From an uncultured Bacteroidales bacterium (lineage in GTDB: Bacteria; Bacteroidota; Bacteroidia; Bacteroidales; JAADJA01): DNA of 64,000 bases. The notes below the pieces were generated by a model that made no database searches, had not been told where the DNA came from, and was given only the letters and a program-made list of their open reading frames with translations. Of this stretch, positions 35,057 through 61,690 are shown piece after piece. The stretch lies in NCBI GenBank assembly GCA_963840975.1, contig CAWJBC010000021.1:259837-323836 (forward strand). Direction: 5' to 3'. Both the position numbers and the translations under genes were made by a program. How positions within the stretch are numbered: position 1 is the first letter of the stretch; every line of letters begins with the position of its first letter.

Positions 35057-35073
35057 GAAGTTAAAAAAATGCA

Positions 35074-35903: not shown

Positions 35904-36290
35904 TTAAAACTGTGCGGTAGCCACCACCTTTTTTCTCCGGGAAAACTTCTTATCATGCCGTTCCTTTTTGGCTCGTTTGATTTCAACTATGTAAAGAAAC
36001 AACGGAAACGTTCCTGCCATTCCAAACAAAAAGGTCAATAACCAGTAAATCCAAACGTGTTTGATCTTGTATCTTTCAGCTTCGGTAAACGTCCAGACGA
36101 AAAAGACAAAAACTACCACCAGCAGGTCAATAATAAAAGCAGCGGATATTTTATTGGCAAACATGCCCGCAATAGTGGCTGCCGGATGCAACCAAAGCAA
36201 TATATTTCCGGTTTCAACCGAAACCTGATAAACAAGAATATTGGGTACAATAAATCCAATGATGGCAAGGATGAGGTAAAATTTTTTCAT
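35904..36290 (-). CDS. DUF2834-like small membrane protein
   Basis: Four hydrophobic helices. The sequence pattern (ILAIIGFIVPN...WLLTFLFGMAGTFPLFLY) is as I recall for DUF2834. Confidence 0.5.
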   Translation of the reverse strand: MKKFYLILAIIGFIVPNILVYQVSVETGNILLWLHPAATIAGMFANKISAAFIIDLLVVVFVFFVWTFTEAERYKIKHVWIYWLLTFLFGMAGTFPLFLYIVEIKRAKKERHDKKFSRRKKVVATAQF

Positions 36291-44099: not shown

Positions 44100-47063
44100 A
44101 TGAAAAATCTAAACGTAATCCATTGGACTTTCGCGATTTTTATGATGATGTCCTTCGTTTCGTTGGGTCAGAATTCGGTTCTGTCAGAAGGTTACTGGTT
44201 TAAATTAGCCATTGATCAATCCGGGATTTATAAAATCAATTACAACGACCTTCTTAGCTATGGTATTTCACCTGCTCAGATTAATCCAAAAAAGATTCAG
44301 ATTTACGGAAATGGAAATGGAATGTTGCCAGAAGCCAATAATGCTTTCCGTTACCACGATTTAAAAGAAAATGCCATTTTTGTTTTTGGTGAAAATGATG
44401 AAGTTTTTGACCAGGGCGATTACATTCTGTTTTATGGTGAAGGGCCAACCGATTGGAAGTTGAATGAAGCCACAGGCTATTTTGATCACCAGGTAAATTA
44501 TTATTCGGATTACACCTATTATTTTATAACGATTGGAACGGAAGTAGGAAAGAGGATAATTAATCAGGCTGAACCACCGGGTAATCCTACTCAAACAATT
44601 CAGATGTTCAATGACTATTTCGAACATGAAGAAGAAAATCATAATCTGATCAGGTCAGGAAAGACCTGGTACGGAGAAATATTTTCAGAAACGACATCCT
44701 ATACCTTCAATCCTAATATTGTGAACCTGTTAACAGATTTTCCTGTTCATCTGAAATCCTCATTTGCTAACCGATCCTTTGTTAATTGCAGCATGGAGAT
44801 TAGCGCTGATGGAGAAGCTGTTTCAACGGTTGTGTTGACATCCATATTTCCTTCAAGTACCAAATATGCCCAGAAAAAAACAGATACAATTTCATTTTTT
44901 GTGAATAATCCTGCATTTGAATTAAATTTCACCTACAATCAACCCAATGATTCGGCAATTGCCTGGCTCGACTATTTTGAACTGAATTTTATAAATGCAC
45001 TCAGTATTAATGGCAATCAATTAAAATTCAGAAGTCTTGCCTCGTTGGGGGCAGGAGAAGTTTCACTTTTTGAAATAACCAATGCCGATGTTTCCACTCA
45101 AGTGTGGAATGTTACAGACCCAATAAATATTTCAGAAATTGACGGTTTACTATTGGGCGATCAACTTGATTTCAAGGTTGCTACGGATAGTTTGCTGGAA
45201 TTTATTGCATTTAGCGGAACGGAATTCGAAAGTCCTGAATTTATCGGGGAGGTTGAAAACCAGAACCTGCATGGATTGAATCCGGTGGATTACATTATTA
45301 TAACTACCGAAGATTTCCTGGAGCCGGCTCAACAGATAGCAGACTTCCATCAAACCCAGGATGGATTAATGTCAGAAGTGGTCATGATAAACCAAATCTA
45401 CAATGAATTTTCATCAGGAGCGCAGGATATTACAGCCATAAGGGATTTCATAAGATACATGTACGATCAGTCCAGCGGGGAAAGTCCTAATTATGTGCTG
45501 TTATTTGGCGATGCCTCCTATGATTTTAAAGACAGGATAGAAAATAACACCAATTTTGTCCCCACTTTTCAAACAACCGAATCTTTAAATACCTCTGCAT
45601 CTGCATCATGGGATGACTATTTTTCATGGTTGGACGAGGAGGAAGGAACAACAGGGACCGCAGATATAGCAGTGAGCAGAATTCCGGTGAAAACTTTCGA
45701 TGAAGCTCAAAGTGCAGTGAATAAAATAATCCATTATTCCCTCAATTCCGAATTTGGTGACTGGAAGAACCGCATCATGTTCATGGCTGATGATGCCGAC
45801 GGTAATTTACATCAGGAACAGGCAGACAGTCTGGCTTTGGTTTTATCTGCAGGATTTGGAGTAATAAACATCAATAAAAACTATCTTGATTTTTACGAAC
45901 TGGTTCAAACCCCTGAAGGACCACGTTATCCTGTTGCCAATGAAAAACTTAACAATGCTATAGATGATGGACTGTTGATCCTTAACTATACCGGACACGG
46001 TGGTGTATTAAGTTGGGCGCATGAACGGGTTTTAACCCTTGAGGATATTCAGGATTGGCAGAATATCAGCCGCTTACCTTTCTTAATTACATCAACCTGC
46101 CAGTTTTCATTATTCGATGATCCTGCGGTGGTTTCAGGAGGAGAAGCTGCGCTCTTAAAGGAGGATGGAGGCTGCATTGCTATTTTTGGACAGTCGCGTT
46201 TGGCTTACAGCCAATCGAACTTTGTTGTGAACAAATATATTTTTGAATATATCGGGAGCGATGATTTTAAGACAAATAAACGATTTGGCGATATCTTCAA
46301 ATATGTTAAACAAAATACGGGTAATCAAATTGCAACCTATGCCAATTCATTCCTTGGCGACCCGGCTTTAAAGATAAATTTTCCGGATAACAAAGTAGTA
46401 ACCAATGCTATCAATGGAATTAATTTACCGGTAGCGCTTGATACAATTCATCCCGGCGATCAAATAACGGTGGAGGGAATCCTCGAAGACGGTCTGGGAA
46501 ATCCATTGAATAATTTTAATGGGAACCTTATGGTTACTGTTTTTGAACGTCCTTATTTGAGGCAAACACTTGGAAATTCAAATACTTCGTACATAACAGA
46601 TATTGAAGTGCAGGATAGTATTATGATTGAGTTGCAGGCAGAAGTTGTTAACGGTCAGTTTGAATATGCTTTTACCGTTCCATCGAATCCCAGCCAGGAA
46701 TATGGGACGATCAAACTGAGTCATTATGCTTTTAATCAGGTGGAAGACGCATCAGGATATTTTTCCGAAATTATGGTTGGCGGCGACCCTAATGCAATCA
46801 ATTCTCATTTTGCAAATAAAAATTTCAGTGTATTTCCGACAATTGCTGATTCCAAACTGACTGTGCTTAACAATGGAAAATCCGAAATATTACAAACCCG
46901 GATAATTGAATTGTCGGGCAAAATATTGATGAGTCAGGATTTCACCGGAATTACCAAAACAAATAGAATTGAACTGAACGTTTCCTCACTGCCTTCTGGT
47001 TTTTATATTCTCAGAGTTGTATCAGGTGATGGAATAGGAGATGTTAAATTCATAAAAAGGTAA
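44100..47063 (+). CDS. C25-family cysteine peptidase, PorU-like (T9SS sortase-like), copy 1, with T9SS C-terminal domain
   Basis: N-terminus W.K.....GIYKI.Y..L...GI....NPK.I.IYGNGNGMLPE. Catalytic-type His in YTGHGG and Cys in TSTCQFSLFDD. C-terminal sorting-domain-like LPSGFYILRVV...KFIKR. Confidence 0.7.
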   Translation: MKNLNVIHWTFAIFMMMSFVSLGQNSVLSEGYWFKLAIDQSGIYKINYNDLLSYGISPAQINPKKIQIYGNGNGMLPEANNAFRYHDLKENAIFVFGENDEVFDQGDYILFYGEGPTDWKLNEATGYFDHQVNYYSDYTYYFITIGTEVGKRIINQAEPPGNPTQTIQMFNDYFEHEEENHNLIRSGKTWYGEIFSETTSYTFNPNIVNLLTDFPVHLKSSFANRSFVNCSMEISADGEAVSTVVLTSIFPSSTKYAQKKTDTISFFVNNPAFELNFTYNQPNDSAIAWLDYFELNFINALSINGNQLKFRSLASLGAGEVSLFEITNADVSTQVWNVTDPINISEIDGLLLGDQLDFKVATDSLLEFIAFSGTEFESPEFIGEVENQNLHGLNPVDYIIITTEDFLEPAQQIADFHQTQDGLMSEVVMINQIYNEFSSGAQDITAIRDFIRYMYDQSSGESPNYVLLFGDASYDFKDRIENNTNFVPTFQTTESLNTSASASWDDYFSWLDEEEGTTGTADIAVSRIPVKTFDEAQSAVNKIIHYSLNSEFGDWKNRIMFMADDADGNLHQEQADSLALVLSAGFGVININKNYLDFYELVQTPEGPRYPVANEKLNNAIDDGLLILNYTGHGGVLSWAHERVLTLEDIQDWQNISRLPFLITSTCQFSLFDDPAVVSGGEAALLKEDGGCIAIFGQSRLAYSQSNFVVNKYIFEYIGSDDFKTNKRFGDIFKYVKQNTGNQIATYANSFLGDPALKINFPDNKVVTNAINGINLPVALDTIHPGDQITVEGILEDGLGNPLNNFNGNLMVTVFERPYLRQTLGNSNTSYITDIEVQDSIMIELQAEVVNGQFEYAFTVPSNPSQEYGTIKLSHYAFNQVEDASGYFSEIMVGGDPNAINSHFANKNFSVFPTIADSKLTVLNNGKSEILQTRIIELSGKILMSQDFTGITKTNRIELNVSSLPSGFYILRVVSGDGIGDVKFIKR

Positions 47064-47174: not shown

Positions 47175-50123
47175 ATGAAGAAAAACATCAGGGTTTTAGG
47201 AGTAGCAATGATTCTCCTGTTTGGGTTTACAACAATGTTGGCCCAAAATTCAGTTTTGTCATCCGGCAATTGGTGCAAAATTGCTGTCGAAAACACCGGT
47301 ATCCATAAAATTACTTACGACAATCTGGTGAGTTTTGGAATTGATCCCGGCTCAATCAATCCAAAAAACATTCGGATTTATGGCAATGGGAACGGAATGT
47401 TGCCTGAACCGGTAAATGTATTCAGGTACAATGATCTTCAGGAAAATGCAATTTTTGTTTTTGGTGAAGATGATGAAGTTTTTGATCAGGGCGATTACAT
47501 TCTGTTTTATGGCGAAAGCCCGACTGAATGGAAGCTGGACGATGCAACCGGTTTATTTGAACACAAGGTAAATCTCTATTCCGATTTAACTTATTATTTT
47601 ATCACGGTTGATCTGGGATCCGGCAAACGGATTGAGGAACAATATTCAACCGTGATCCCTCCAACTTTTACTACAACTTCTTTCAATGACTATTACTTTC
47701 ATGAGATGGAACTGGAGAACCTAATTCACACCGGTAGAAATTGGTACGGTGAGCGGTTTGAAGAGATAACCGGTTATAACTTCCAGGTTGATTTCCCAAA
47801 TTTGAAAACCAATTCAGCAATTTATTTTGAGGTTAATGTTATAGCCAGATCCGCCATTACAAGCAATATAGCTGTTTCATTGGAGAATCAGCAATTACTG
47901 TCGTTATCCATACAGCCAAGTAGCTCCAATCCAAATGGTGACTTCGCAAAATCGAGATGGGATACTGCATGGTTTTATTCTACTAACCCGGAATTAAATC
48001 TTACTTTTTTATACGATCAACCTACAGATTCTTCCATCGCGTGGTTGGGTTACTTTACTTTGAATGCCAGGCGCAATCTTGTTTTTGATGCTGGACAAAT
48101 GTGTTTTCGGGATACTCAATCACCCGGTCCTGGAAAAGTTACTCAGTTCCAGGTGCAAACGACCAATGAAAATGTCAACATTTGGAACATCACCGATCCC
48201 CTGAATCCAAAGCACGTCAATCAAAATTACTCGTCCGGAATGATAGATTTTACGTTTGAAACAGACAGTTTACTGGAATTCATTGCTTTTGATGGCTCTC
48301 AATTTTACACTCCTGACTTTGATGAACAATTAGAAAACCAAAACCTACATGGTTTGGAACCTGTTGATCTTGTGGTTGTGACTGGCCAAGATTTTATAAT
48401 TCCTGCTCAACAATTGGCTGATTTCCGCGAATTGCACGATGGGTTGTCATCCGTCGTAGTTACTCCTGACATAATTTATAATGAATTTTCTTCCGGCGCT
48501 CAGGATATTACAGCAATAAGGGATTTTTTGAAAAATATGTATGAGCAATCAAATGGCGAAAACCCAAAATATCTGCTCCTTTTTGGCGATGCCTCTTATG
48601 ACTATAAAGACCGTATCGAAAACAATACGAATTTTGTTCCAGTATGGGAATCATCAGAATCATTAAACCCCGTAGGTTCATTTTGCACGGATGATATATT
48701 TGGAATTTTGGATGATGACAATATGCTTGATATCGGTATCGGAAGGTTACCCGTTAAAACATTTCAGGAAGCGCAGGATATGGTAACAAAGATCATTTAC
48801 TATTCGTCCGATATAAATTCCTATGGCGCTTGGAGAAACGAAATTTGCCTGGTAGCTGATGATGAAGATATGAATCTGCATTTTAATGATTCAGAAAAAT
48901 TAGGTGTACAGGTTGATACGGCTGCTCCCGATTTCAATATTTTTAAAATTTACCTGGATGCTTATGAGCAAATAACAACTGAAGAAGGAAATTTTTATCC
49001 GGATGTAAATCAAGCAATAACAGACAAAATCAATTCAGGGGTAAGCATTATTAATTATGTCGGGCATGGTGGTTACGAAGCGCTGGCACACGAAAAAATC
49101 TTCACAGAAAACGATATTAATAACTGGAATAATATTCAATTCCCGGTGTTTGTTGCAGCCACCTGCGATTTTGGTCTTTTTGATGATCCTGACATCCATT
49201 CACTCACTGAACAATCCTTATTGCTTGCTGATAAAGGAATGATTGCAGTTTGCGCGGCATCCCGTGCAACTTATGCCGGAGGAAATGCTGTTTTTCAAAA
49301 ACATTTTTTCAGGTTTTTATTAGACAAGCCAACTTTACCGCTTGGTCATGTTTTTTCACTTGCAAAAAATAATACTGGATCAAATGATAATACGAGGAAA
49401 CAGATTCTTTTCGGTGATCCGTCAATGAAAATTACAATTCCTGCATTGACAGTTTTAACTGAAGCTATCAATGGTCAAAATATATTAAATCCCATTGATA
49501 CTGTAAACCCCGGCGAACAGGTTATCGTTTCAGGTTATATTGCTGACCCGCAAGGAAACACAGTTTATAATTTCAATGGAAACCTCTATGTGAAAATATT
49601 TGATCGGGCTGATACTGTTTTCACTTTGGGTAATGATAATTCAAGCTTTATTACTGAATTTATCAGGCAGGACAGCATCCTGCTTGAAATGGAAACAGTG
49701 GTGCTCAACGGACAATTCGCTTTTATCTTCAATCTGCCTTACGAAATGGATGAAGCTTATGGAAACCTAAAGTTTAGCTTCTATTCTGTGGACTTTCCAA
49801 ATGACGCCTCCGGTCATTTTTTCGAACTTATAGCCGGAGGTCAGCCCAGCGCCCTTTTTGAATCACCCGTTGAGCAGTTTATTCTAAATTTCTATCCCAC
49901 TATTACTAAAGATTATCTGAATTATTCGGTGCAACAGGATATCCGGAGCCTTGCCATTGATGTATTTGACATAACAGGGAAAAAGGTGATTACTTTTTCT
50001 TCGTCAAATCATTTAAAAGGTGAGCAGAACAGGATTGACCTGACGGAATTGCAGGATGGTTTTTATATTATCAATGCCATAGCTGATGGTCAGCCAATTC
50101 GTTGGAAGGTAATCAAAAAATAG
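47175..50123 (+). CDS. C25-family cysteine peptidase, PorU-like, copy 2 (tandem paralogue)
   Basis: Same architecture as copy 1: YVGHGG, AATCDFGLFDD, and C-terminal LQDGFYIINAI...KVIKK. Confidence 0.7.
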   Translation: MKKNIRVLGVAMILLFGFTTMLAQNSVLSSGNWCKIAVENTGIHKITYDNLVSFGIDPGSINPKNIRIYGNGNGMLPEPVNVFRYNDLQENAIFVFGEDDEVFDQGDYILFYGESPTEWKLDDATGLFEHKVNLYSDLTYYFITVDLGSGKRIEEQYSTVIPPTFTTTSFNDYYFHEMELENLIHTGRNWYGERFEEITGYNFQVDFPNLKTNSAIYFEVNVIARSAITSNIAVSLENQQLLSLSIQPSSSNPNGDFAKSRWDTAWFYSTNPELNLTFLYDQPTDSSIAWLGYFTLNARRNLVFDAGQMCFRDTQSPGPGKVTQFQVQTTNENVNIWNITDPLNPKHVNQNYSSGMIDFTFETDSLLEFIAFDGSQFYTPDFDEQLENQNLHGLEPVDLVVVTGQDFIIPAQQLADFRELHDGLSSVVVTPDIIYNEFSSGAQDITAIRDFLKNMYEQSNGENPKYLLLFGDASYDYKDRIENNTNFVPVWESSESLNPVGSFCTDDIFGILDDDNMLDIGIGRLPVKTFQEAQDMVTKIIYYSSDINSYGAWRNEICLVADDEDMNLHFNDSEKLGVQVDTAAPDFNIFKIYLDAYEQITTEEGNFYPDVNQAITDKINSGVSIINYVGHGGYEALAHEKIFTENDINNWNNIQFPVFVAATCDFGLFDDPDIHSLTEQSLLLADKGMIAVCAASRATYAGGNAVFQKHFFRFLLDKPTLPLGHVFSLAKNNTGSNDNTRKQILFGDPSMKITIPALTVLTEAINGQNILNPIDTVNPGEQVIVSGYIADPQGNTVYNFNGNLYVKIFDRADTVFTLGNDNSSFITEFIRQDSILLEMETVVLNGQFAFIFNLPYEMDEAYGNLKFSFYSVDFPNDASGHFFELIAGGQPSALFESPVEQFILNFYPTITKDYLNYSVQQDIRSLAIDVFDITGKKVITFSSSNHLKGEQNRIDLTELQDGFYIINAIADGQPIRWKVIKK

Positions 50124-50218: not shown

Positions 50219-51169
50219 ATGAACATTTCATACAGCGATCCCTTATCGCAAGCATGGAACCGCATGAAAAAAGCCCTTTTCCAGCCCTTCGATATTGGCA
50301 AATGGTTTACGGTTGGATTCACAGCTTTTCTGGCTGTTTTGGTCGAAGGTCCCGGAAATCCGGGAGGTAGTGCAAATTATTCGCGCACCAACCGATTCTC
50401 TGATTTAAGCTGGCAAGAGATTGCTGAATGGCCGAATATTGCCTGGTATTGGCTAATGAATCATCCGGTGTGGTTCGCTTTGATCATTGTCGGGATTGTA
50501 TTTTTGGTTGGCTTGATGATTGTCCTGACCTGGGTTAGTTCAAGAGGAAAATTTATGTTTTTGGATAATGTAGTCTGTGATAAAGCCGAAGTTGTAAAAC
50601 CCTGGAATGAATTCAGCCAACAGGGTAATTCCCTTTTTATGTGGCGGTTGGTTTTTGGCATGATCAGCGCTTTTCTTGTCCTAACTTCATTGTTAATAGC
50701 ATTCGTAGTTATGATCAATGTGTTCACGGGTGATACGAGTCTGGGAACAAAGATTGGTTCGGTGACCGGACTCATATTCGAGTTCCTGATTCTCATCACT
50801 GTTATTTCCTATATCTCCCTTCTTTTAAATAACTTTGTCGTTCCTATTATGTATAAGCACCGAATAGGTGCAACTCAGGCATGGCTTAAGTTTCTGCCTG
50901 TTTTGTTGGGTAATTTCTGGGATTTTATCATTTATGCCTTATTCCTGTTGGTTTTATATGTATTGGTGGTGATTTGCGTTATCTTTTTTGGATTGTTTAC
51001 CTGTTGCATTGGTTTTCTGTTACTCATCATCCCTTACATCGGATCTGTGGTTCTACTCCCGGTTTCTTATACTTTCAGGGCGTTCAGCGTTGCTTTCCTT
51101 GAGCAGTATGGTGATGAATTTACTATTTTCCCCAAGCCGGAAACAATTGATGATAATTTGATAATATAA
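50219..51169 (+). CDS. Polytopic membrane protein, function unknown
   Basis: Six or more hydrophobic helices. The N-terminal SQAWNRMKKALFQPFDIGKWF motif resembles DUF4013-type proteins; this assignment is weak. Confidence 0.4.
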   Translation: MNISYSDPLSQAWNRMKKALFQPFDIGKWFTVGFTAFLAVLVEGPGNPGGSANYSRTNRFSDLSWQEIAEWPNIAWYWLMNHPVWFALIIVGIVFLVGLMIVLTWVSSRGKFMFLDNVVCDKAEVVKPWNEFSQQGNSLFMWRLVFGMISAFLVLTSLLIAFVVMINVFTGDTSLGTKIGSVTGLIFEFLILITVISYISLLLNNFVVPIMYKHRIGATQAWLKFLPVLLGNFWDFIIYALFLLVLYVLVVICVIFFGLFTCCIGFLLLIIPYIGSVVLLPVSYTFRAFSVAFLEQYGDEFTIFPKPETIDDNLII

Positions 51170-51489: not shown

Positions 51490-53022
51490 TTATTCAAATT
51501 CGCCTTCGCTGAAAACGATGGCTTTAAAAGTATATATTTCAGCATCTTTCCATCCATCCCATCCCAAACCGGCTTTATCGCGTGAACAATGTCCCAGAAA
51601 TTCTTCAAGACTCCAGCCTGTTTCGGTTGCCACCTGCGGAAGAAAAGTGCCGGAACGATAGCCTTTTTTGATGTAAATCCCATCAGTTCCCAATACGATT
51701 TCATTTATGTCATTGATTAATTTCATTGGGGTAAGCACCGAAATTTCTATTTCCAATTCCTTCAACTCATTTTGACTAACCGGCGAAAATCTTGAATCCT
51801 TCGTAGCTGAAGCTACCGACATTTGCTGAACTACCATATACAAGGGTTCATTAGCATCAAACCGCCCAATACACCCCCTGAGGCGATGATTTTTCGTAAG
51901 TGTTACAAAAGCTCCGCCATTGGTTTTCAAAGCCCCTGATAGATTTTCTTTTTCCACCTGTTTCATTTTGCCTGATGAAAGATGCTCTTCAAGCGTCAGC
52001 CGGGCAATTTGAAGCAACTCCTTTTTATCATCCATGTTCAGAAAATTTGAATTATCGGCATTTTTGCCTTCAACTAAACATAGAGCAATAGCATTGTATC
52101 CCACTACTTTATCTTTATCTCCATACATGGATTCACCCGAGTTGGAATAGGCGATCTGTTCGTATTTATATTCTGGTTTTCCGCCCGTTAGGTGGAGCAA
52201 GGTAAGCACTGAGGTCCATCCGCAGGCGCGGGTTGCGAGTCCCGCAACTTTTTCATTGGCAGATGAATTTATGACATTGATAAATTGATCGGGATTATTC
52301 AAAAGTATAGCATCTGCAGTATTTTTATCAAGATAATTGGCTTCATCGTACCGGGGATAGTGCGAAAAATCGGAACTGATTACAAAAAGATTCTCTTCAT
52401 TAAAAAACGGAGAAAGAGCTTTTGCAATTAATTTACAGTCTTCGTCCGATTGGGTTCCTATTACAATAGGAATAATCAGGAAATCCTTCTTTAAAATATA
52501 CTGCAAAAAGGGCAATTGAACTTCAATACTATGTTCAGCCGAATGAGCTTCCGGCACATAGCTGAAAATTTTATTTTCACTGATTAACTTTTTAGCAAGG
52601 TCAAGGTTTACCTTAACTTCCCCAAGTGGTGTTTCGCAATTTCCAACAGAATAGATAGAGGCACCTTTAAAATATTCACGGTGACTGGAAGCGATGATGA
52701 ACACATTTTGGTATGACTTCCCGGTATCAATCTGATTGAAAGCAGATGCTGCAATTGTACCTGAAAAAACATAACCGGCATGAGGGGTTATTATTGCAAG
52801 TGTGTTATTCGCTTTTTTTGGTTCAGCTTTCGCAAAAAGATCAGTGAGGGTTTTTCCCAACACTGATTTATCGGCAGGGTAAAATTGCCCTGCAAATACC
52901 GGTTTAAGATTTTGATTTTTTAATTTTCCCGATCCAGTGTTAGTCGCCACCTGCGAATTGCAGCAATCACAAAACACCATAAAAAAAAGTAAGAAATGAC
53001 AGAAAAGTATTTTCTTAACCAT
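51490..53022 (-). CDS. Fusion of AmmeMemoRadiSam system protein B (Memo-like) and protein A (AMMECR1), with N-terminal signal peptide
   Basis: Leader MVKKILFCHFLLFFMVFCDCCNSQ. Memo motifs ITPHAGYVFSG, EHSIEVQLPFL and SSDFSHY. AMMECR1 motifs GAFVTL...LRGCIG, PRF-like SRFSPV, and LPQVATETGWSLEEFL...KAGL. Confidence 0.8.
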   Translation of the reverse strand: MVKKILFCHFLLFFMVFCDCCNSQVATNTGSGKLKNQNLKPVFAGQFYPADKSVLGKTLTDLFAKAEPKKANNTLAIITPHAGYVFSGTIAASAFNQIDTGKSYQNVFIIASSHREYFKGASIYSVGNCETPLGEVKVNLDLAKKLISENKIFSYVPEAHSAEHSIEVQLPFLQYILKKDFLIIPIVIGTQSDEDCKLIAKALSPFFNEENLFVISSDFSHYPRYDEANYLDKNTADAILLNNPDQFINVINSSANEKVAGLATRACGWTSVLTLLHLTGGKPEYKYEQIAYSNSGESMYGDKDKVVGYNAIALCLVEGKNADNSNFLNMDDKKELLQIARLTLEEHLSSGKMKQVEKENLSGALKTNGGAFVTLTKNHRLRGCIGRFDANEPLYMVVQQMSVASATKDSRFSPVSQNELKELEIEISVLTPMKLINDINEIVLGTDGIYIKKGYRSGTFLPQVATETGWSLEEFLGHCSRDKAGLGWDGWKDAEIYTFKAIVFSEGEFE

Positions 53023-53051
53023 TTTTGACTAAATTTGAAAACCTAAAACAA

Positions 53052-55202
53052 ATGTATAAAATGTTGCTGAGATCCGAAAATAGAATTAAAATTTCATTGT
53101 TCATCCTCGGATTTACCTCTATCATAACACAGATTATCCTCCTGAGGGAATTTTTATCAATCTTCAACGGAAATGAGCTTATTACCGGAATCATATTAGC
53201 CAATTGGATGCTTTTAACCGGTTTGGGATCTTATTTAGGAAAGCTATTAGATAAACATATAAATAATTTGAATTTTATTTATGCCGGTCATTTTATGATG
53301 GCTTTTCTGCCTATTATCATTTTATTTTTAGCTTATTATTTCCGAAACAATTTTTATCCTCCCGGTCAGATTATCAATATTGCAGGTGTTTTTTTTAATT
53401 CGTTTTTACTGCTGACACCATTCTGTTTGGTCAGTGGGATTATCTTTCCTGTGCTTGCTTCATTGTTGTCAGAACAATCAAAATCAAATATAATAAATAA
53501 AGCCTATTCCATCGAAGCATTCGGAAGCGTTGCCGGCGGAATTCTTTTCAACTTTTTGATGATTTTCGTTTTAAAAACTTTTTTCAGCCTTACCATTTTG
53601 ATGATGCTAAACTTAGCAGCAGCCATCACAGGCATTTTTTTAAGCGGTAAAAGAATTTTCTCCTATATTTTGACATTATTAACAATGTTGATTACAGTTT
53701 TCATTGCATTTTCGGATATTGATTTGAAAGCCCTTCAGTACTTGTATCCGGGTCAGGAAATTGTCCATTTTGAAGATACGCCTTATAGCAAAATTGTTGT
53801 TACCCGTACCGAAGATCAATACAATTTTTTTGAAAACGGGACTTTTCTTTTTTCGGAGGATAATACCATTATGATGGAAGAAAATGTTCATTATGCAATG
53901 GCACAGCATTCTGCACCTGAAAATGTCCTTTTAATTTCGGGTGGGATATCAGGTAGTATAAATGAAATACTGAAGTACAAAATCAAATCTCTGGATTATA
54001 TTGAACAGAATCCAAAGATCATTGAGATAGGGGAGTTGTACACCAGCAATATCAGTCATGATCGCCGGATAACAATAATTAATCAGGATGCCCGTCTTTT
54101 TTTGAAAACCAATCGCACAAAGAAGTACGATGTTGTTTTGATCAATCTTCCTGATCCTACAAGCGCTCAAATCAATCGTTTTTATACACTGGAATTTTTT
54201 GAGGAATTAAAAATGGATTTGAATGAATCCGCAGTAATTTGTATCAGCCTTACCGCCACATCGAACTACATGGGAGAGCAATCCCGGAAAATTAATTCCT
54301 CGGTTTATATAACCCTAAAACTACTATTTCAGAATGTCATCATTATGCCGGGTGGCTTAAACTATTTTATTGCCTCAGATGGTGTATTATCAAGGTCAAT
54401 AAATGAACTTTTGGAGTTGAAAAGCATAAAAAACATTTATCTTAACACGTACTACCTGAATGATAAAAAAATTGAACAGGAGAGCAAACTATTAGAAGAA
54501 ATGTTGTCGGAAAAAGTGGCGATAAACTATGACTTTAAGCCAGTGGTATATCTTTATCAGTTAGATTATTGGTTAAGCCAATTCGATCTGAATTATCTCA
54601 TCCTTTTTATTATCATTCTATTTCCCGTAACTTATTCATTGCTTAAAATGAATTTTATCAATTATGGCATTTTTGTTACCGGAATTTCGGCTTCAGCCAT
54701 TGAAGTCATTCTTATTATTGCATTTCAGGTTATTTACGGATATACCTATCAAATGATGGGTATTCTCATTACATTTTTCATGGCTGGTCTGTTTGTCGGC
54801 TCTGTATTTGTAATAAAAAAAATTAAGGTATTCATCCGCACATACAGCCTTGTTCAATATTTTATCGGCATTTTTTCTATATTAGTTGCATTGGTTCTTT
54901 ATTTTTTACGATCGGCTTATGTGGATATTTTTATTGTTCATATTACCTTCATATTGCTGATTTTCATTATCGGAATCCTAACAGGGCTGCAATTCTCGCT
55001 GGCTTCAAGATTAAGAACAATGTCAATAATTAAAATCGCAGCTTCCACTTATGCCTCTGATTTATTAGGAGCCGCAATAGGCGCAGTGTTGGTTGCAGCT
55101 TTTTTGATTCCTTATCTGGGTATTATAAAAGTAGCACTCCTAATTTCAGTGTTAAACTTTGTTACAGGATTGTATATATTGTTAAAATTAAAAAAGAGTT
55201 AA
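53052..55202 (+). CDS. Polytopic membrane protein with central spermidine-synthase-like (aminopropyl/methyltransferase fold) domain
   Basis: About 7 N-terminal and 6-7 C-terminal TM helices. The central domain has LLISGGISGS, QDARLFL and VLINLPDPTSAQINRFYTLEFF. Start uncertain (TTG 53025, ATG 53052 or ATG 53061). Confidence 0.7.
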   Translation: MYKMLLRSENRIKISLFILGFTSIITQIILLREFLSIFNGNELITGIILANWMLLTGLGSYLGKLLDKHINNLNFIYAGHFMMAFLPIIILFLAYYFRNNFYPPGQIINIAGVFFNSFLLLTPFCLVSGIIFPVLASLLSEQSKSNIINKAYSIEAFGSVAGGILFNFLMIFVLKTFFSLTILMMLNLAAAITGIFLSGKRIFSYILTLLTMLITVFIAFSDIDLKALQYLYPGQEIVHFEDTPYSKIVVTRTEDQYNFFENGTFLFSEDNTIMMEENVHYAMAQHSAPENVLLISGGISGSINEILKYKIKSLDYIEQNPKIIEIGELYTSNISHDRRITIINQDARLFLKTNRTKKYDVVLINLPDPTSAQINRFYTLEFFEELKMDLNESAVICISLTATSNYMGEQSRKINSSVYITLKLLFQNVIIMPGGLNYFIASDGVLSRSINELLELKSIKNIYLNTYYLNDKKIEQESKLLEEMLSEKVAINYDFKPVVYLYQLDYWLSQFDLNYLILFIIILFPVTYSLLKMNFINYGIFVTGISASAIEVILIIAFQVIYGYTYQMMGILITFFMAGLFVGSVFVIKKIKVFIRTYSLVQYFIGIFSILVALVLYFLRSAYVDIFIVHITFILLIFIIGILTGLQFSLASRLRTMSIIKIAASTYASDLLGAAIGAVLVAAFLIPYLGIIKVALLISVLNFVTGLYILLKLKKS

Positions 55203-55238
55203 CCACTATATTTGAAGTTAATTAATTCATTTTTATTG

Positions 55239-56405
55239 ATGTCTGGGAATCTAATATCGAAAAGAGAATTTTTAAAAACAGGTGCGCTAATCACAGGTGC
55301 ACTGGGATGTAGTTTTTGCGGACTTAACTTACTATCAAAAACTGCAAAAGGAAAGCAAGACGCAAATTTCATTCGTATAAACCCAGGCCCAGATGAGTAT
55401 AAGATTGAAGCAAAATATTACGTTGAAACCCCCAAAGGTTTAAAATGTCTTTTATGTCCGAACGAATGTAAGATGCTGCTGAATGAGGAAAGTGAGTGCC
55501 GGACAAGAGTGAATATTGACAATAAGTTGATGGTTACAGCTTATGGAAATCCGTGTGCTATTCATATTGACCCTATCGAAAAAAAGCCTTTTTATCACTT
55601 TTTACCAACAACTCAGTCTTACTCAATAGCAACAGCTGGTTGTAACCTTGCATGCCTCAATTGCCAGAATTGGGAAATCTCGCAGTCAAGTCCCAGGAAA
55701 ACAAGAAATTATGACCTGCATCCAGAAAAGGTTGTTGAACAAGCCATCAAGAATCAATGTAAGTCAATTGCCTATACTTATTCCGATCCGGTAGCTTATT
55801 ACGAGTATGCGCTTGATACAGCCATCATCGCCAAAGAAAAAAGAATCAAAAATGTCATTGTATCAGCTGGTTATATGAACGAAAAGCCTTTAAGGGAATG
55901 GTGCAAATACGTAGATGCTGCAACAATTGATATTAAATCCTTTTCGAATGAAATTTACGAAATGCTGAATGCAGGAAAATTAGAGCCTGTGTTAAATTCA
56001 TTGAAAATTTATAAAGAAGAAAGGGTTTGGCTGGAAATTTCAAATTTGGTTATTCCATCCTGGACAGATGACCTGGAAATGATAAAGAAAATGTGCGGAT
56101 GGCTTGTTGAGAATGAATTTCAAGATACACCTCTTCATTTTTTAAGGTTTTACCCACAGCACAAATTAGCAAACTTACCTGCCACGCCGGTTAGTGTGCT
56201 AATTAAGGCAAGAGATATTGCCCTTTCATCAGGATTGAACTATGTTTATATCGGGAATACACCGGAATTAAATGCAGAGAATACAAATTGTCCTAAATGC
56301 AAAAAAGTAGTTATAGAAAGGAAAGGCTTTCAAATATTAAACAACTATCTAACCCAGGGAAAATGCAAGAACTGTGGTTCAATTATCAGCGGTATCTGGC
56401 AATAA
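55239..56405 (+). CDS. AmmeMemoRadiSam system radical SAM enzyme with Tat-like leader
   Basis: CX3CX2C motif in ATAGCNLACLNCQNWE. N-terminal Cys cluster CLLCPNEC...C and C-terminal CPKC...CKNC. Leader MSGNLISKREFLKTGALITGALG resembles a twin-arginine signal with KR. Confidence 0.8.
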   Translation: MSGNLISKREFLKTGALITGALGCSFCGLNLLSKTAKGKQDANFIRINPGPDEYKIEAKYYVETPKGLKCLLCPNECKMLLNEESECRTRVNIDNKLMVTAYGNPCAIHIDPIEKKPFYHFLPTTQSYSIATAGCNLACLNCQNWEISQSSPRKTRNYDLHPEKVVEQAIKNQCKSIAYTYSDPVAYYEYALDTAIIAKEKRIKNVIVSAGYMNEKPLREWCKYVDAATIDIKSFSNEIYEMLNAGKLEPVLNSLKIYKEERVWLEISNLVIPSWTDDLEMIKKMCGWLVENEFQDTPLHFLRFYPQHKLANLPATPVSVLIKARDIALSSGLNYVYIGNTPELNAENTNCPKCKKVVIERKGFQILNNYLTQGKCKNCGSIISGIWQ

Positions 56406-57065: not shown

Positions 57066-57638
57066 GTGCAGGAATATAGGGTTGAGGAAATATTAGATGG
57101 GATCCGAAATAGAAACACTGACGTTCTGGAGTTTATCTATAAGAATTACTATCATCAGATCAATGTTTTTATTAATAAAAATGGCGGTTCAGATGAGGAT
57201 ACTAAAGATGTTTATCAGGATGCCATCTTAGTGATTTATCAGAAGATACAGAAGGATAAACTGACACTTACTTGTTCTTTTAATACTTATTTATATTCTG
57301 TTTGCCGGTTACTGTGGCTTAAGGAGCTTGAAAAAAGAAAACTCAATAAAGGTTTGCTTGAGGAATCAGCGAAGTTTTTAGAATTGGATCAGGACATTTT
57401 GACCCTTTACCTGACAAACGAAAGATTCATGTTATACCAGGAACATTTTAACAAGTTGAGTTATAATTGTCAAAAAATCCTGGAACTGTTTTTGGCACAG
57501 ATACAACTAAAGGAAATTGCAAGGATACTTGGGTTTAGAAGTGTTCAATATGTGAAAAAGAGAAAGCATCAGTGCAAGGAAAAGTTAATAGCAAGTATTA
57601 AAAATGATCCGAGATTTAAAGAAATTGTACAACAATAA
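57066..57638 (+). CDS. Sigma-70 family (ECF-like) RNA polymerase sigma factor
   Basis: Region 2-like DVYQDAILVIYQKI...FNTYLYSVCRLLWLKE and region 4-like HTH QLKEIARILGFRSVQYVKKRKHQCKEKL. Confidence 0.7.
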   Translation: MQEYRVEEILDGIRNRNTDVLEFIYKNYYHQINVFINKNGGSDEDTKDVYQDAILVIYQKIQKDKLTLTCSFNTYLYSVCRLLWLKELEKRKLNKGLLEESAKFLELDQDILTLYLTNERFMLYQEHFNKLSYNCQKILELFLAQIQLKEIARILGFRSVQYVKKRKHQCKEKLIASIKNDPRFKEIVQQ

Positions 57639-57657
57639 ATGCTAAAAAGTTATTAAA

Positions 57658-58398
57658 ATGGAAAAGTCATTTAGTCTGTTAGAAGATTTCCTGGATGGCA
57701 ATTTAAGCAGCGATGAATTAAATCAAATGCTTAAAGATTTGGAAAGTAATAAAGATCTTACCAGGGAAATGATGTTAAGGCTTGAGGTAAATCAGGTTAT
57801 TAAGGACAAAGGGTTTTTGGAATTGCAAAATAAACTTGAAATGCAATTAAATAATACCAACAACAATAGCCCTCTCCTTAATCTGGGAAGAGAGTTTCTT
57901 AAAACCTGGCAATTAGCTGCAGCATCCTTTGCTTTGGTTCTTGTTGTTGGTGGTTTATGGTATATTTTATCAAACAAGCCCTATTCAACTGAAAAACTGG
58001 TAACCAAATATTACAAACCGGCGCATCCTTTCCTTCAAATCAGGTCTGCTGAATCTAACAGTGAAAATGCACTTGCTCAGGCTTTCAGCTTTTACAAGGA
58101 TAATGATTATAGCAATGCCTTACAATATTTCAAATCTATCGAAAACCAAACTACTGCTAAATTTTATTGTGGTGTCTGCTACATTGAGTTAGAACAATAT
58201 GATAATGCCATAGAGGCATTCTCATACATTATTAACGATAACGACAATCTGTTTGTAGAACATGCAAATTGGTATCTGGGACTGATATACCTGATGGACA
58301 ATCAAAAGAGTAAAGCGATTGATCAATTTGAAACAATAGCAAGTGAAGATAATTTTTATGCAGCACAGGCTTCTGACATACTCAAATACCTGCAGTAA
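57658..58398 (+). CDS. Anti-sigma-like single-pass membrane protein with extracytoplasmic TPR-like domain
   Basis: N-terminus LLEDFLDGNLSSDE, TM helix AAASFALVLVVGGLWYIL, and C-terminal TPR-like helices. It begins 20 nt after the sigma gene. Confidence 0.45.
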   Translation: MEKSFSLLEDFLDGNLSSDELNQMLKDLESNKDLTREMMLRLEVNQVIKDKGFLELQNKLEMQLNNTNNNSPLLNLGREFLKTWQLAAASFALVLVVGGLWYILSNKPYSTEKLVTKYYKPAHPFLQIRSAESNSENALAQAFSFYKDNDYSNALQYFKSIENQTTAKFYCGVCYIELEQYDNAIEAFSYIINDNDNLFVEHANWYLGLIYLMDNQKSKAIDQFETIASEDNFYAAQASDILKYLQ

Positions 58399-58399
58399 A

Positions 58400-61300
58400 T
58401 TATAACTTTTTTTTTCTGGCCTTGTACCTTATCAAGAAGATTAATAAAATAATCAAGGTCAAAACTATCCCACTGGTGTATGCTATTGCACTTATCCCGG
58501 GTTTATTTGCGACAGGAGCCGTTTTTCCTATTTGCACATAGGCAGCCCAGAAATAAGGGTGGGATTGAAGAGGATCTGAGTGCTCAAGATAAGTAAGTTT
58601 TGCATTTTGTAATGCCTTATCCGTGCCAATGCCTGTTTTCATTTGCTGATAAAACTCTGTCATTATTTCAGCGCCTGCTACATCTTCAACTTCCCACATT
58701 GTCATAACAACGGATGGAATACCAGCGAATAAAAACCCTCTTGCCAAACTCATTATTCCTTCTCCTTTATTCAATTTTCCGGTTCCGGTTTTACAGGCAC
58801 TTAAAACTGCCAGCCTGGCGTTTAATTTTAAATTATATATTTCATAGGCATTTAAAAATCCATCTTCAACTGTATCATTGGTATGGGTAAAAATTAATTT
58901 TGAAGCCATCGGATCATCTTCATCAATCAATGTATGCATGGCAAAATGAAGGATTCCATATTTCTGAGCATTCTTTTTAAAGTTGAGTTCGGTGGCAACT
59001 TCACCAAGAAGTACTTCGCCCTTCATGATTGAAATGATATTGTTGACCTCCTCTTTCGAATGATCCAAAGGCTTCAAATTGCTGAAAATATCATCTGATC
59101 GGTTGAGGGAGGCTTGTGTTTGGTTGAATATTTTTGAATAATCAGGAGCCATTGCCAGTATTTTTCGAGCATATTTGTTCCTGTCAGAATAATTAAATAA
59201 AAGCGTACTCGAAAAAGAATAGGATACGGTATATGACTTTAGAACATATTCGAGTTTGCTAAAGTCAATTCTCTCAGGAACTTTAAAATCTTTAATTAAT
59301 GCTTCAAAGGGAAGATAACCAAGAACATTATCAGGAATAATAATGACCCTTGAATATTTTGTTGAATGTTCTTCTGGTAAGAACAATGTTCTGTATAAAA
59401 AATTGCCCAAATAAATGAACTCAATAAAGTCTTCCTTATCAAATGATTCAATAGGAAACTGGTTGATGGAAGAAACAAAATTTTGAACTTTATCTTTAAA
59501 GTCAGCTTCCAAAATATACTTATGAAGACGAATGCTGTCAGAGGTAATGAAGAAGGTGAGCAAAAGTGAATCAATAATTTTGTATTCTAATAATAGTTCT
59601 CCATTCTTAAGTTTGGATTGGATGTCAGAAATTTTAACTACTTTAAAGTTATACTTTAAGTCATAATATTGAGGATAATCTTTCTCGATAGAACCAATCA
59701 GGCTATCGTAACTCATCGTTTTTTTGAAAATACTTTTCTTCCATTTATCAATTTTATTAGTATCAACAGAAATTTTTTGACTTTCATCGTAAATGAAATT
59801 TTTATAAAGAGCAATATCTCTGCTCAATTCTGTCTCTTTTTGCCTGAGAACCAATGGGATATCTGTAAACTCTATGGCTTCAGATTCCCTGATGGAAGAG
59901 AGAAGTATAGCGGCTTTCCCTTTCTCTGAATATTCAAAGGCGATATTTAAATACTTAGGATCATTGCTTTTACCGTATAAATCGGTTGCAATGAGAACAA
60001 CTAAATTGTAAATATTATATACATATTCATTCGTCTGTAGCTTCGTGCCTTCATCCTTGTAAGAAGCTAAAATCAGCTCAAAAAGCCCGATTGCAAGCTT
60101 ACTGGTTTCAAGGCTCATTTCCAGGTCATGGATACTCCTCGACTTATCAAGATAAATATCATATAATATATATGCCTTCCTGTATAAGATGACGAATTTA
60201 TTGAATTCCGGGTCCAAATCTTTTAACCTTGGATTAACATAAACATTCTCATTGTTAAAATTTTCAGTAGTGGAGATGAGAGCTTTTTGATAGTAAAGCA
60301 GGGCCTTATCAGGGTATCCCATATTATTGTACAAATCACCCAAATAAATTAACGTAATAGAAACGTCTGTATATTTATTTCCGTAATTCTCAACCCATAT
60401 ATTATAAGCTTTAATTAATAACTCTTCAGCCTTTTTATAGTTCTTTTTTGAAATACAAAATTCTCCATAAGCCAGGTAGCTACCTGCAGTTATTGGATGA
60501 TTAATTCCGTAAATAGACTCTGCTTTTGATATTGACAACAAATAATTTTTTTCAGCATCTTTATAGTTACTAAAATTAAAATAACATCTTGCCAGACTTC
60601 TTAATGATTTGATAACAGATTCTGAATTGAAATTATCATTAAGGCTTTCAGTATAGTATTGAATTGCTTTGTTAAAATCACCTTTGGCTTCATAAATTAC
60701 ACCTAGGTTCAGAACTAAATCGGCAATAATGGGATTGTTCCGTGTTGTACTCTTTAAATACAGAGAAAGTGCCCTCTCATGATAATCCAATGCCTTCGTC
60801 AAATCCCTAAGCAAAATATAAAGTGTTCCTTTATTATAATATATTGGTGCTAAACCAAAATAATCCAATCCAAAGTTTGTATTGTAGATTTCTTCAGCTT
60901 TTGAATAATAATCCAAGGCTTGATTTGGATTTCCCATTACATTTAAAAACCTGCCATAATTTATATAGCCAATGGCTAATTGAGGATCAGTTGAACTCAG
61001 AGTCTTTTCCTTTAAAATTATTGATCTGTTCAGGTAAACAAGAGCACTATCGTAATTTCCTGTGGAGGATAGTACTATGCCAATATTTTGGAATAGTGCA
61101 GCCATCATAATTTCTGATGGCTGCTCCCTTGATTCTTCAATTAACAAAGCCTCCCTGTAAAACGCCATTGCAATATCCAAATTCCCACTCGAAAATTGAA
61201 TATTACCTATGGCTCTTTTAACCAAAACCAGCAAACTATCATTTACTCCCTCTTCAAAATATTGTAAAGATGAATTTAATGATTGTATAGCGCTGTCAAA

Positions 61301-61690
61301 TTTAAGAGTTTTACTGTAAGTTGTGCCTCTGAGATAATAAAATGTTCCTAATAAATTATCATCGGTTACATGATATTTATTAATTAAACTATCCGACTGC
61401 TTAATATAGTTAAAAGTCGAATCAAATAATCCCATGATTTGATAGCATTGAACAATTTGAAAATTGATTTTTAACACATCATTCCAATGCTTATGATTAA
61501 TATAATATTCTGAGAGCGTTTTGTAGTAAATTAACGATGTTTCATAATTGGAAGCACTATAAAGTGAATCTGCTTTCGCTAATAGACTTTCTGAATCAAA
61601 ATTGGGAATAACTAAACTGCTACTTTGACAAAAAGCCGAGGAAAAATAGGTAACGAGTACAATTAAAATATGTATTTTAATGTATTTCAA
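58400..61690 (-). CDS. TPR-repeat CHAT-domain (caspase-like) protease with signal peptide and C-terminal TM anchor
   Basis: Leader MKYIKIHILIVLVTYFSSAFCQ and many TPR units. CHAT motifs GILHFAMHT and LAVLSACKTGTGKL. C-terminal anchor IVLTLIILLIFLI followed by RYKARKKK. Confidence 0.8.
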   Translation of the reverse strand: MKYIKIHILIVLVTYFSSAFCQSSSLVIPNFDSESLLAKADSLYSASNYETSLIYYKTLSEYYINHKHWNDVLKINFQIVQCYQIMGLFDSTFNYIKQSDSLINKYHVTDDNLLGTFYYLRGTTYSKTLKFDSAIQSLNSSLQYFEEGVNDSLLVLVKRAIGNIQFSSGNLDIAMAFYREALLIEESREQPSEIMMAALFQNIGIVLSSTGNYDSALVYLNRSIILKEKTLSSTDPQLAIGYINYGRFLNVMGNPNQALDYYSKAEEIYNTNFGLDYFGLAPIYYNKGTLYILLRDLTKALDYHERALSLYLKSTTRNNPIIADLVLNLGVIYEAKGDFNKAIQYYTESLNDNFNSESVIKSLRSLARCYFNFSNYKDAEKNYLLSISKAESIYGINHPITAGSYLAYGEFCISKKNYKKAEELLIKAYNIWVENYGNKYTDVSITLIYLGDLYNNMGYPDKALLYYQKALISTTENFNNENVYVNPRLKDLDPEFNKFVILYRKAYILYDIYLDKSRSIHDLEMSLETSKLAIGLFELILASYKDEGTKLQTNEYVYNIYNLVVLIATDLYGKSNDPKYLNIAFEYSEKGKAAILLSSIRESEAIEFTDIPLVLRQKETELSRDIALYKNFIYDESQKISVDTNKIDKWKKSIFKKTMSYDSLIGSIEKDYPQYYDLKYNFKVVKISDIQSKLKNGELLLEYKIIDSLLLTFFITSDSIRLHKYILEADFKDKVQNFVSSINQFPIESFDKEDFIEFIYLGNFLYRTLFLPEEHSTKYSRVIIIPDNVLGYLPFEALIKDFKVPERIDFSKLEYVLKSYTVSYSFSSTLLFNYSDRNKYARKILAMAPDYSKIFNQTQASLNRSDDIFSNLKPLDHSKEEVNNIISIMKGEVLLGEVATELNFKKNAQKYGILHFAMHTLIDEDDPMASKLIFTHTNDTVEDGFLNAYEIYNLKLNARLAVLSACKTGTGKLNKGEGIMSLARGFLFAGIPSVVMTMWEVEDVAGAEIMTEFYQQMKTGIGTDKALQNAKLTYLEHSDPLQSHPYFWAAYVQIGKTAPVANKPGISAIAYTSGIVLTLIILLIFLIRYKARKKKL

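Follow-up and report, generated by a model that had tools for sequence, protein, structure and literature searches.

Where does an AmmeMemoRadiSam system act when its proteins carry export signals and a membrane protein is encoded among them? The question is raised by a locus of an uncultured Bacteroidales bacterium (assembly GCA_963840975.1, contig CAWJBC010000021.1), lying in a stretch of 64,000 nucleotides that was analysed as a whole and is called the window here. Packed into 4.9 kb of it are three open reading frames (ORFs) for a Memo-AMMECR1 fusion, a large membrane protein with a spermidine synthase-like domain and a radical S-adenosylmethionine (SAM) enzyme. The trio is widespread. Conservation of Memo and AMMECR1 extends from bacteria to humans, both are linked to human disease, and their chemistry is unsolved. 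A first-pass annotation of the bare sequence had suggested that the three genes form one functional unit at or beyond the cytoplasmic membrane, in which the membrane protein would make or carry a polyamine-modified substrate. All three ORFs were found where it had placed them, and the notion of a single unit at the membrane is strongly supported in silico by the leaders and by gene linkage. Neither of the two outcomes that it had named as refuting, negative leaders and a membrane gene that is no conserved neighbour, was obtained. The reading favoured here, with moderate confidence, is that the locus is an extracytoplasmic three-gene AmmeMemoRadiSam variant with a periplasm-facing membrane partner, which probably supplies SAM or the substrate.

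Predicted export signals of the AmmeMemoRadiSam proteins

The three AmmeMemoRadiSam components recognized in the first pass are indeed present, as all three family models were matched above their cut-offs. The fusion scored 236.3 bits with TIGR04336 (protein B, Memo; cut-off 26) and 165.7 bits with TIGR04335 (protein A, AMMECR1; cut-off 99), and was also matched by the Pfam models for Memo (PF01875) and AMMECR1 (PF01871). The radical SAM protein reached 351.6 bits with TIGR04337 against a cut-off of 220, and 62 bits with PF04055. Among 75 fusion proteins, H81, D218, H221 and C267 of Memo are invariant, as are R382, G383, C384, G386, D409 and R411 of AMMECR1 (R-G-C-I-G motif), and this invariance of active-site residues makes the exported fusions look catalytically intact. 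The cluster motif CNLACLNC (CX3CX2C) of the radical SAM enzyme is likewise invariant among the aligned homologues, together with two extra groups of cysteines (C70/C73/C77/C87 and C351/C354/C376/C379).

The leader that the first-pass annotation had described on the radical SAM enzyme resembles those of the twin-arginine translocation (Tat) pathway, with the motif S-K-R-E-F-L-K, a weakly hydrophobic h-region and a basic c-region, SKTAKGK. It is kept in at least 120 homologues. The 120 closest (58-100% identity) are nearly all 380-392 aa long, align from residue 1 and retain the motif as [ST]KRxF[IL]K, and in an alignment of 37 sequences R9 and F11 are invariant while K8 is present in at least 90%. 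This conservation of leaders among homologues argues that they are not artefacts of over-long ORFs. A wider set of 80 genome loci was retrieved with an alignment of the radical SAM enzyme, and 64 of these carry a Tat-like leader: KR is found in 46 (47 with L031 included), RR in 13 and RK in four. The twin-arginine form becomes canonical outside Bacteroidota. [ST]RRxF[LIV] leaders occur in Desulfobacterota, Stahlbacteria and high-GC metagenome forms, orthologues in other phyla have the full [ST]RRxF[LI]K motif, and the high-GC metagenome loci, which were found via the membrane protein, have longer leaders with a textbook [ST]RRxxhxxG.

Model scores and hydropathy point the same way. Four orthologous RR leaders scored 15.3, 15.7, 20.8 and 32.3 bits with TIGR01409 (TAT_signal_seq; cut-off 16.7), so that two of them pass, and this model was the sole NCBIfam match of four of the five leaders tested (that of the window included) and the top match of the fifth. 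The mean hydropathy of the best 12 residues of the h-region is 1.79 in the radical SAM leaders (n = 118) compared with 2.78 in the Sec signals of their partners (Mann-Whitney p = 1e-29), and a weaker hydrophobicity of this region is a known difference of Tat from Sec signals. In one locus with a KR-type leader, L027, the exported module is preceded by a tatA gene (PF02416, 67 bits) at a distance of about 4 kb.

This tatA (L027:1790-2134, in an Ignavibacteriota-like locus) is fused to a double zinc-ribbon (TatA_B_E 67 bits, plus DZR). A second one was recognized by a regular-expression match in L124, near position 19, about 4 kb upstream of the module and again in an Ignavibacteriota-like locus. 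No tatA was found in the 64-kb window by a regular-expression scan aimed at TatA only.

The fusion was also said to start with a signal peptide, and a hydrophobic signal does precede the Memo domain in all 41 scorable genome loci with a Tat-like radical SAM leader. In the window protein, an n-region MVKK and the hydrophobic segment ILFCHFLLFFMVF are followed by C-D-C-C-N-S-Q, which would make a Sec-type signal and possibly that of a lipoprotein (Cys18/20/21). A clear L-x-G-C lipobox is present in many of the non-Bacteroidota copies. The fused state itself had been regarded as an unusual configuration, and this view was not borne out: the fusion is the usual form among all these relatives, leaderless loci included. 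It was also considered as a marker of the exported variant and rejected, since leaderless loci carry it too.

Linkage of the membrane gene and host range

Linkage was surveyed in 160 related loci, namely the 80 genome loci and 80 metagenome loci retrieved via the membrane protein, and the three genes are linked in most of them. The membrane gene is present in 56 of the 59 informative genome loci whose radical SAM enzyme has a Tat-like leader, compared with three of the 10 informative leaderless loci (Fisher p = 1e-5). Searched from the other side, 64 of the 80 metagenome loci, with membrane homologues of 29-53% identity, contain at least one of the two other genes (fusion and radical SAM), and several of the remaining ones end at contig edges. 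The proposed neighbourhood of membrane gene and AmmeMemoRadiSam genes is therefore conserved in both search directions and in several phyla. The usual order is fusion, membrane gene, radical SAM gene, with the membrane gene mostly directly upstream and on the same strand; in the window and in L001 the fusion is on the opposite strand. Hosts were found in Bacteroidota, Ignavibacteriota, Desulfobacterota, Nitrospirota, Omnitrophota, Stahlbacteria, KSB1 and a few archaeal-labelled bins, and across phyla the trio stays together in varying order and orientation while its surroundings change. One carrier, Mangrovibacterium marinum DSM 28823 (L014), is in culture.

The archaeal bins are labelled 'uncultured archaeon', Woesearchaeota and Aenigmatarchaeota, and contain exported modules, either entire or in part, whose leaders are of the RR or RK form (L039, L065 and L071). 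Either mis-binning or transfer into archaea would account for them.

No fourth or fifth conserved gene and no precursor peptide was found across lineages when the neighbouring ORFs were clustered, for 80 and then for 160 loci. The only recurring neighbours are the housekeeping genes ligA, ffh and secA in one Bacteroidales clade, where the neighbourhood is truly lineage synteny. It may be asked whether the adjacency of the trio is of the same kind and devoid of function, with the hydrophobic N-termini arising from mis-called starts, the more so as the covariation of leader and membrane gene stems from few independent events. Such a view is very improbable, given that the three genes remain linked across Bacteroidota, Ignavibacteriota, Desulfobacterota, Nitrospirota, Omnitrophota and high-GC lineages, that the leader residues are invariant at the protein level, and that the box TAnnTTTG, which we take to be the Bacteroidota -7 promoter element, lies at the right distance from each annotated ATG.

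In a neighbour-joining tree, the Bacteroidales copies without a leader group in a single clade that is nested among leader-bearing ones. They constitute a natural experiment, in that leader and membrane gene have disappeared together from one subclade, in which the fusion mostly has no signal peptide either; this peptide was lost in six later branches (L055, L059, L063, L070, L072 and L074). The pattern suggests that the system returned to the cytoplasm step by step and gave up the membrane gene along with the leader.

A different combination was seen in L018, where two leaderless genes, one for a radical SAM enzyme (335 aa) and one for a stand-alone Memo protein (296 aa), are arranged in tandem on the same strand (L018:3946-5797), directly upstream of a complete exported set (L018:5808-11128). 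Cytoplasmic-type and exported-type sets can thus coexist in one genome.

The membrane protein

The membrane protein passed PF01564 clearly (61.5 bits, cut-off 22.9) and NF037959, 'fused MFS/spermidine synthase', barely (42.3 bits, cut-off 40); MFS stands for major facilitator superfamily, and the latter model bears the name that NCBI gives to close homologues. It stayed under the cut-off of every aminopropyltransferase equivalog (TIGR00417, 65 of 250 bits; PRK00811, 90 of 260; PRK03612, 191 of 472), and by the tests run it would not be a spermidine synthase. An AlphaFold2 model built from 60 homologues (mean predicted local distance difference test, pLDDT, 84.2; predicted TM-score, pTM, 0.85) has seven transmembrane (TM) helices, a SpeE-fold domain and another seven TM helices, which agrees with the seven plus six or seven helices around a spermidine synthase fold counted in the first pass. 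The domain matched Thermus SpeE in a profile search of the PDB (E 1.4e-26) and 1uir with Foldseek (E 1e-11, TM-score to target about 0.7). When the full-length model served as the Foldseek query, every structure retrieved was a SpeE. TM1-6 are homologous to TM9-14 (hhalign probability 95.7%, E 9.6e-9), and when the N-terminal half was modelled separately (pLDDT 85) the top 50 Foldseek PDB matches, weak as they were, were all MFS-type transporters. On these models the protein is read as an MFS-like 6+6 body, the central loop of which has turned into a hairpin insert of TM7, domain and TM8.

The loops on the side of the N-terminus hold on average 17.3 Lys and Arg residues in the 60 homologues, compared with 3.8 on the other side. 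This positive-inside bias predicts cytoplasmic termini and a SpeE-like domain on the periplasmic side. The conserved residues of the TM part cluster in the predicted periplasmic loops (R29, N38, E39, Q556 and Y559-Y563).

Longer homologues of 840-864 aa were also observed (P0184, P0185, P0202, P0211 and about ten others). Their roughly 130 extra hydrophobic N-terminal residues had no Pfam match and no recognisable domain and are probably additional TM helices, which, if odd in number, would move the N-terminus.

The SpeE-like domain keeps the ribose-binding (E315) and adenine-binding (D343) acids. The acid of GGG[D/E]G that selects decarboxylated SAM (dcSAM) aligns to I296, a position occupied by Ile in 35 of the 60 members, Val in nine, Ala in eight, Tyr in five, Phe in two and Leu in one. 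Three residues on, at the equivalent of V106, the family majority is Thr and the window protein has Ser. The first Asp of D-x-x-D-P aligns to N362 and is Asn in 52 of the 60, while the second is kept as D/E365 in 55, a catalytic-type acid at the amine-binding position; E273, E274, H277, N372 and R373 are conserved as well. In a plant spermidine synthase, D103I and V106T together with Q79T produced a SAM-using putrescine N-methyltransferase and abolished aminopropyl transfer (PMC3725402). The membrane-protein family looks like one that binds SAM and not dcSAM, because two of these three switch positions match putrescine N-methyltransferase; the third (Q79T) is Asn in the family.

In the earlier suggestion of a polyamine-modified substrate it is the aminopropyl half that is weakened, as the dcSAM-selecting acid has become hydrophobic. 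The broader possibility was also considered that the membrane protein is a real polyamine enzyme, either an aminopropyl- or a methyl-transferase, coupled to a polyamine or amine transporter, and that the amine so modified, on an envelope lipid, glycan or peptidoglycan, is then processed by the exported AmmeMemoRadiSam proteins. The homology to aminopropyltransferases is clear from the match to Thermus SpeE, the acid at the amine-binding position is retained along with the five further residues of the domain, and conserved TM-part residues in periplasmic loops are what would be expected of an outward-facing active site. The equivalog models, however, all remained below cut-off, and both the dcSAM-selecting acid and the first Asp of D-x-x-D-P have been replaced. 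Replacing that acid by Ile does away with aminopropyl transfer in spermidine synthases (PMC3725402). Moreover, cytoplasmic AmmeMemoRadiSam systems do without such a partner, and SAM would still be needed outside the cell. On balance a polyamine enzyme is considered unlikely.

Proposed mechanism and its weighing

The mechanism proposed for the extracytoplasmic variant starts from the predicted export of the radical SAM enzyme and the fusion, and from the topology, SAM preference, transport role and substrate that we infer for the membrane protein. The radical SAM enzyme would fold and gain its Fe-S clusters in the cytoplasm, be moved in folded form across the inner membrane by the Tat pathway via its SKREFLK leader, and perhaps remain anchored by that leader. 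The fusion would be exported by Sec, probably as a lipoprotein, and the TM hairpin of the membrane protein would present the adenosyl-binding SpeE-fold domain on the periplasmic face. All catalytic domains would then come together on the periplasmic side of the cytoplasmic membrane, where their substrate would be anchored in the membrane or belong to the envelope. Three independent signals underlie this outer-face placement: the Tat-type leader of the enzyme, the Sec or lipoprotein signal of the fusion, and the topology predicted for the membrane protein.

Two domains with SAM-type ligands are present and the only extra gene is transporter-like, so that the simplest model is a delivery of SAM or substrate to the periplasmic face. 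As our best guess, the membrane protein would carry SAM to the periplasmic face and bind it in its outward-facing domain, from which it would be handed to the radical SAM enzyme or used to alkylate an amine of a shared substrate. Alternatively, the enzyme may be exported with SAM already bound, the SAM serving as a regenerated cofactor. Lysine 2,3-aminomutase uses SAM in this manner, and the glucose-fructose oxidoreductase of Zymomonas is exported by Tat with NADP bound.

A number of points weigh against an extracytoplasmic system of this kind. To our knowledge no radical SAM enzyme works outside the cytoplasm, and we know of neither a periplasmic SAM pool nor a periplasmic low-potential reductant. 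The window leader scored 13.1 bits with TIGR01409 and so falls below the cut-off, the K fixed in most Bacteroidota and Ignavibacteriota leaders is odd for an optimal Tat signal, and two metagenome copies of the radical SAM enzyme (L156 and L158) have strongly hydrophobic, Sec-like leaders. As to linkage, three leader-bearing loci (L008, L015 and L065) have no membrane gene within 3.3-10 kb, and the two earliest branches of the leaderless clade, L042 and L051, have kept the fusion signal in the absence of the membrane gene. Since the leaderless Bacteroidales copies belong to one nested clade, and hence to few independent events, the Fisher p value overstates the covariation. The matches of the membrane protein to MFS-type structures are weak (E 0.04-0.3, TM-scores 0.35-0.58), and the Pfam MFS models matched none of the 60 family members. 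With D/E365 kept, the SpeE-like domain may be an enzyme in its own right and not a device for handing over SAM. The whole case is, finally, a computational one.

Several of these difficulties would be eased if the radical SAM enzyme stayed in the cytoplasm, with a vestigial or re-used Tat-like leader as its tether, either to the cytoplasmic face of the membrane or to the MFS-like protein. Its product would then leave through the MFS body, and the Memo-AMMECR1 lipoprotein and the SpeE-like domain would complete it on the outside. Neither SAM nor a reductant would be needed by the enzyme in the periplasm, and the replacement of the first Arg by Lys in 46 of the 64 leader-bearing genome loci, like the sub-threshold leader of the window, would cause no surprise. 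L042 and L051, in which a leaderless enzyme accompanies a signal-bearing fusion, further indicate that the two proteins need not share a compartment. NarG provides a parallel, being a cytoplasmic protein with a remnant Tat-like motif; that motif, however, is known to have no such h-region, whereas the leader studied here keeps the three-part Tat layout and, outside Bacteroidota, takes the form [ST]RRxF[LI]K and passes TIGR01409. A single N-terminal span with its positive charges on the N-side would place the catalytic domain outside. The SpeE-like domain would still require an adenosyl cosubstrate on the outside, and the loss of the leader accompanies that of the membrane gene. A cytoplasmic enzyme is accordingly judged improbable, and the extracytoplasmic variant is retained.

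A bolder form of the extracytoplasmic reading is put forward tentatively. The locus could represent the first radical SAM system outside the cytoplasm, with a Tat-exported enzyme, an MFS-type partner that brings SAM, and a substrate that is a membrane or envelope molecule and not RNA. If this were true, the restriction to a membrane or envelope substrate (lipid, isoprenoid, glycan or protein) would apply to homologues in the cytoplasm and in eukaryotes as well. A large clade spanning several phyla, with the whole trio bound for the periplasm, speaks for a substrate which is present outside the cytoplasm as well. For AMMECR1, the current proposal, favoured in the literature, is a modification of RNA bases (PMC4075521).

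Comparison with known systems

The locus resembles canonical AmmeMemoRadiSam systems in that it passes the three family models, keeps the active-site residues and Cys clusters and has its genes clustered. It differs from them in that every part has a predicted export signal and in that an extra membrane gene belongs to the unit. Leaderless sets such as the L018 tandem pair and the L055/L059/L072/L074 clade have neither export signals nor the membrane gene. The novelty seems to lie in the predicted export of the entire system and in its consistently linked membrane partner.

The nearest counterparts of the membrane protein are NF037959 proteins and membrane aminopropyltransferases of the PRK03612 type, which share an N-terminal 7-TM block followed by a SpeE fold; PRK03612 aligns with residues 13-420. 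Unlike these, the window protein has a second 7-TM block after the domain, a changed cosubstrate site and a link to AmmeMemoRadiSam genes. With soluble SpeE and putrescine N-methyltransferase it shares the fold, the ribose and adenine acids and the second Asp of D-x-x-D-P. It departs from soluble SpeE in that the domain is inserted in a membrane protein and is predicted to be periplasmic, and in the change of GGG[D/E]G to GG[I/V]SG with Thr or Ser three residues on, as in D103I plus V106T (PMC3725402). The large and so far uncharacterised 'fused MFS/spermidine synthase' family gains defined partner genes and a working hypothesis from this comparison.

Tat-exported Fe-S proteins, such as the hydrogenase small subunit, ferredoxins of the DmsB/NrfC type and Rieske proteins, have a comparable motif of the twin-arginine type and a weak h-region, and they too must fold around their Fe-S clusters before export. 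The passenger here is instead a radical SAM enzyme, for which we know of no precedent, and the Bacteroidota copies use KR. KR is tolerated in natural Tat substrates such as TtrB of Salmonella. An exported radical SAM enzyme would be surprising. Its SAM would have to be either a pre-loaded, regenerated cofactor or delivered across the membrane.

Among characterised proteins, pyruvate formate-lyase activating enzyme and other glycyl-radical activases are the nearest relatives of the radical SAM enzyme (TIGR02493, 46 bits), and JGI records label several of its close homologues 'pyruvate formate lyase activating enzyme'. The score is far below the cut-off of 232 bits, however, and the window enzyme carries additional Cys clusters in its N- and C-terminal parts; near the locus, no gene for a glycyl-radical enzyme was found.

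A literature search for AmmeMemoRadiSam gave incidental mentions only, and one for exported or periplasmic radical SAM enzymes gave nothing relevant. Nothing was retrieved for 'fused MFS' with 'spermidine synthase', the link to AmmeMemoRadiSam being undescribed there. A 2019 study by Burroughs et al. may overlap with the present one; it is said to deal with Memo-AMMECR1-radical SAM gene contexts and to raise an isoprenoid or lipid idea, with which a trio sent to the periplasm would agree.

Gene starts and promoter boxes

The features of the locus are collected in Table 1. The ATGs at 53022 (-), 53061 (+) and 55239 (+) are likely to be the starts. The genes called in NCBI/ENA (738-kb contig) encode exactly 510, 713 and 388 aa, and a TAnnTTTG box lies 24-27 nt upstream of each of the three ATGs. 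This motif occurs at chance level over the whole window (86 matches compared with 81 expected), so that only the positions of the boxes are suggestive. The membrane protein had been given as 725 aa in the first-pass annotation; this length comes from the longest ORF, which begins with TTG, and 713 aa from the ATG is the likely one. The divergent genes, said at that time to be about 30 nt apart, are separated by 38 nt, and the radical SAM gene, placed 9-36 nt past the membrane gene, follows it after 36 nt. With the TTG starts of the longest ORFs (membrane protein 53025..55202, radical SAM enzyme 55212..56405) these gaps shrink to 2 and 9 nt. A sigma-70 promoter scan gave matches not above chance, and an Rfam scan of the whole window gave no match to regulatory RNAs.

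Table 1. Features of the AmmeMemoRadiSam locus, in window coordinates.
Feature	Position	Strand	Remarks
Memo-AMMECR1 fusion (AmmeMemoRadiSam proteins B+A)	51490..53022	-	510 aa; TIGR04336, TIGR04335, PF01875, PF01871
N-terminal signal peptide of fusion, aa 1-24	52951..53022	-	MVKKILFCHFLLFFMVFCDCCNSQ; hydrophobic signal kept in relatives
Memo domain of fusion, aa 40-313	52084..52905	-	TIGR04336, PF01875
AMMECR1 domain of fusion, aa 335-504	51511..52020	-	LRGCIG motif; TIGR04335, PF01871
Divergent intergenic region, 38 nt	53023..53060	.	two back-to-back TAnnTTTG boxes
TAnnTTTG boxes in divergent region	53030-53037 (+), 53049-53056 (-)		24 and 27 nt 5' of the two ATGs
Membrane protein, 'fused MFS/spermidine synthase'	53061..55202	+	713 aa; NF037959, PF01564, AlphaFold2
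N-terminal membrane half, TM1-TM7, aa 5-217	53073..53711	+	AlphaFold2 helices
SpeE-fold (aminopropyltransferase-like) domain, aa 233-481	53757..54503	+	predicted periplasmic
C-terminal membrane half, TM8-TM14, aa 510-712	54588..55196	+	AlphaFold2, repeat alignment
TATATTTG box, possible internal promoter	55207..55214	+	25 nt 5' of radical SAM ATG; motif common, evidence weak
AmmeMemoRadiSam radical SAM enzyme	55239..56405	+	388 aa; TIGR04337, PF04055
Tat-type leader, aa 1-35	55239..55343	+	MSGNLISKREFLK, h-region TGALITGALGCSFCGLNLL, basic c-region SKTAKGK
Radical SAM cluster motif CNLACLNC (C135, C139, C142)	55641..55664	+	invariant in alignment

Neighbouring genes in the window

Downstream of the radical SAM gene, a stretch of 660 nt contains short ORFs only, with no feature that would mark any of them as a gene (their conservation was not compared). 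The DUF7544 gene, the two C25 peptidase genes and the sigma, TPR and CHAT genes around the locus were considered as partners and rejected, as they are not conserved beside the system. The first of these, by the 3' end of the fusion gene, encodes a multi-pass DUF7544 membrane protein of 316 aa (50219-51169, +) and is not conserved in the 160 loci. Directly downstream of the locus, 57066-61690 encodes a weakly matching sigma-70 region-2 protein (190 aa), a TPR protein of 246 aa and, in the opposite orientation, a TPR-CHAT protein of 1096 aa with a C-terminal TM segment.

Two tandem paralogous proteins of 980 aa (44100-47063 and 47175-50123, +) contain peptidase C25 domains of the gingipain type, and each has a C-terminal sorting domain for type IX secretion. 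The same secretion tail occurs in a third protein, with BNR repeats, encoded at 37718-39424. Between these, a 1413-aa ORF (39627-43868, -) joins a glycogen synthase in its N-terminal half to DUF3417 and a glycogen/starch phosphorylase in its C-terminal half, and is thus a synthase-phosphorylase fusion. Further upstream, the G+C content of 32001-36000 falls to 0.325-0.331 compared with about 0.38-0.42 in the flanks, with strongly positive GC and AT skews, and this segment may be foreign or otherwise atypical DNA.

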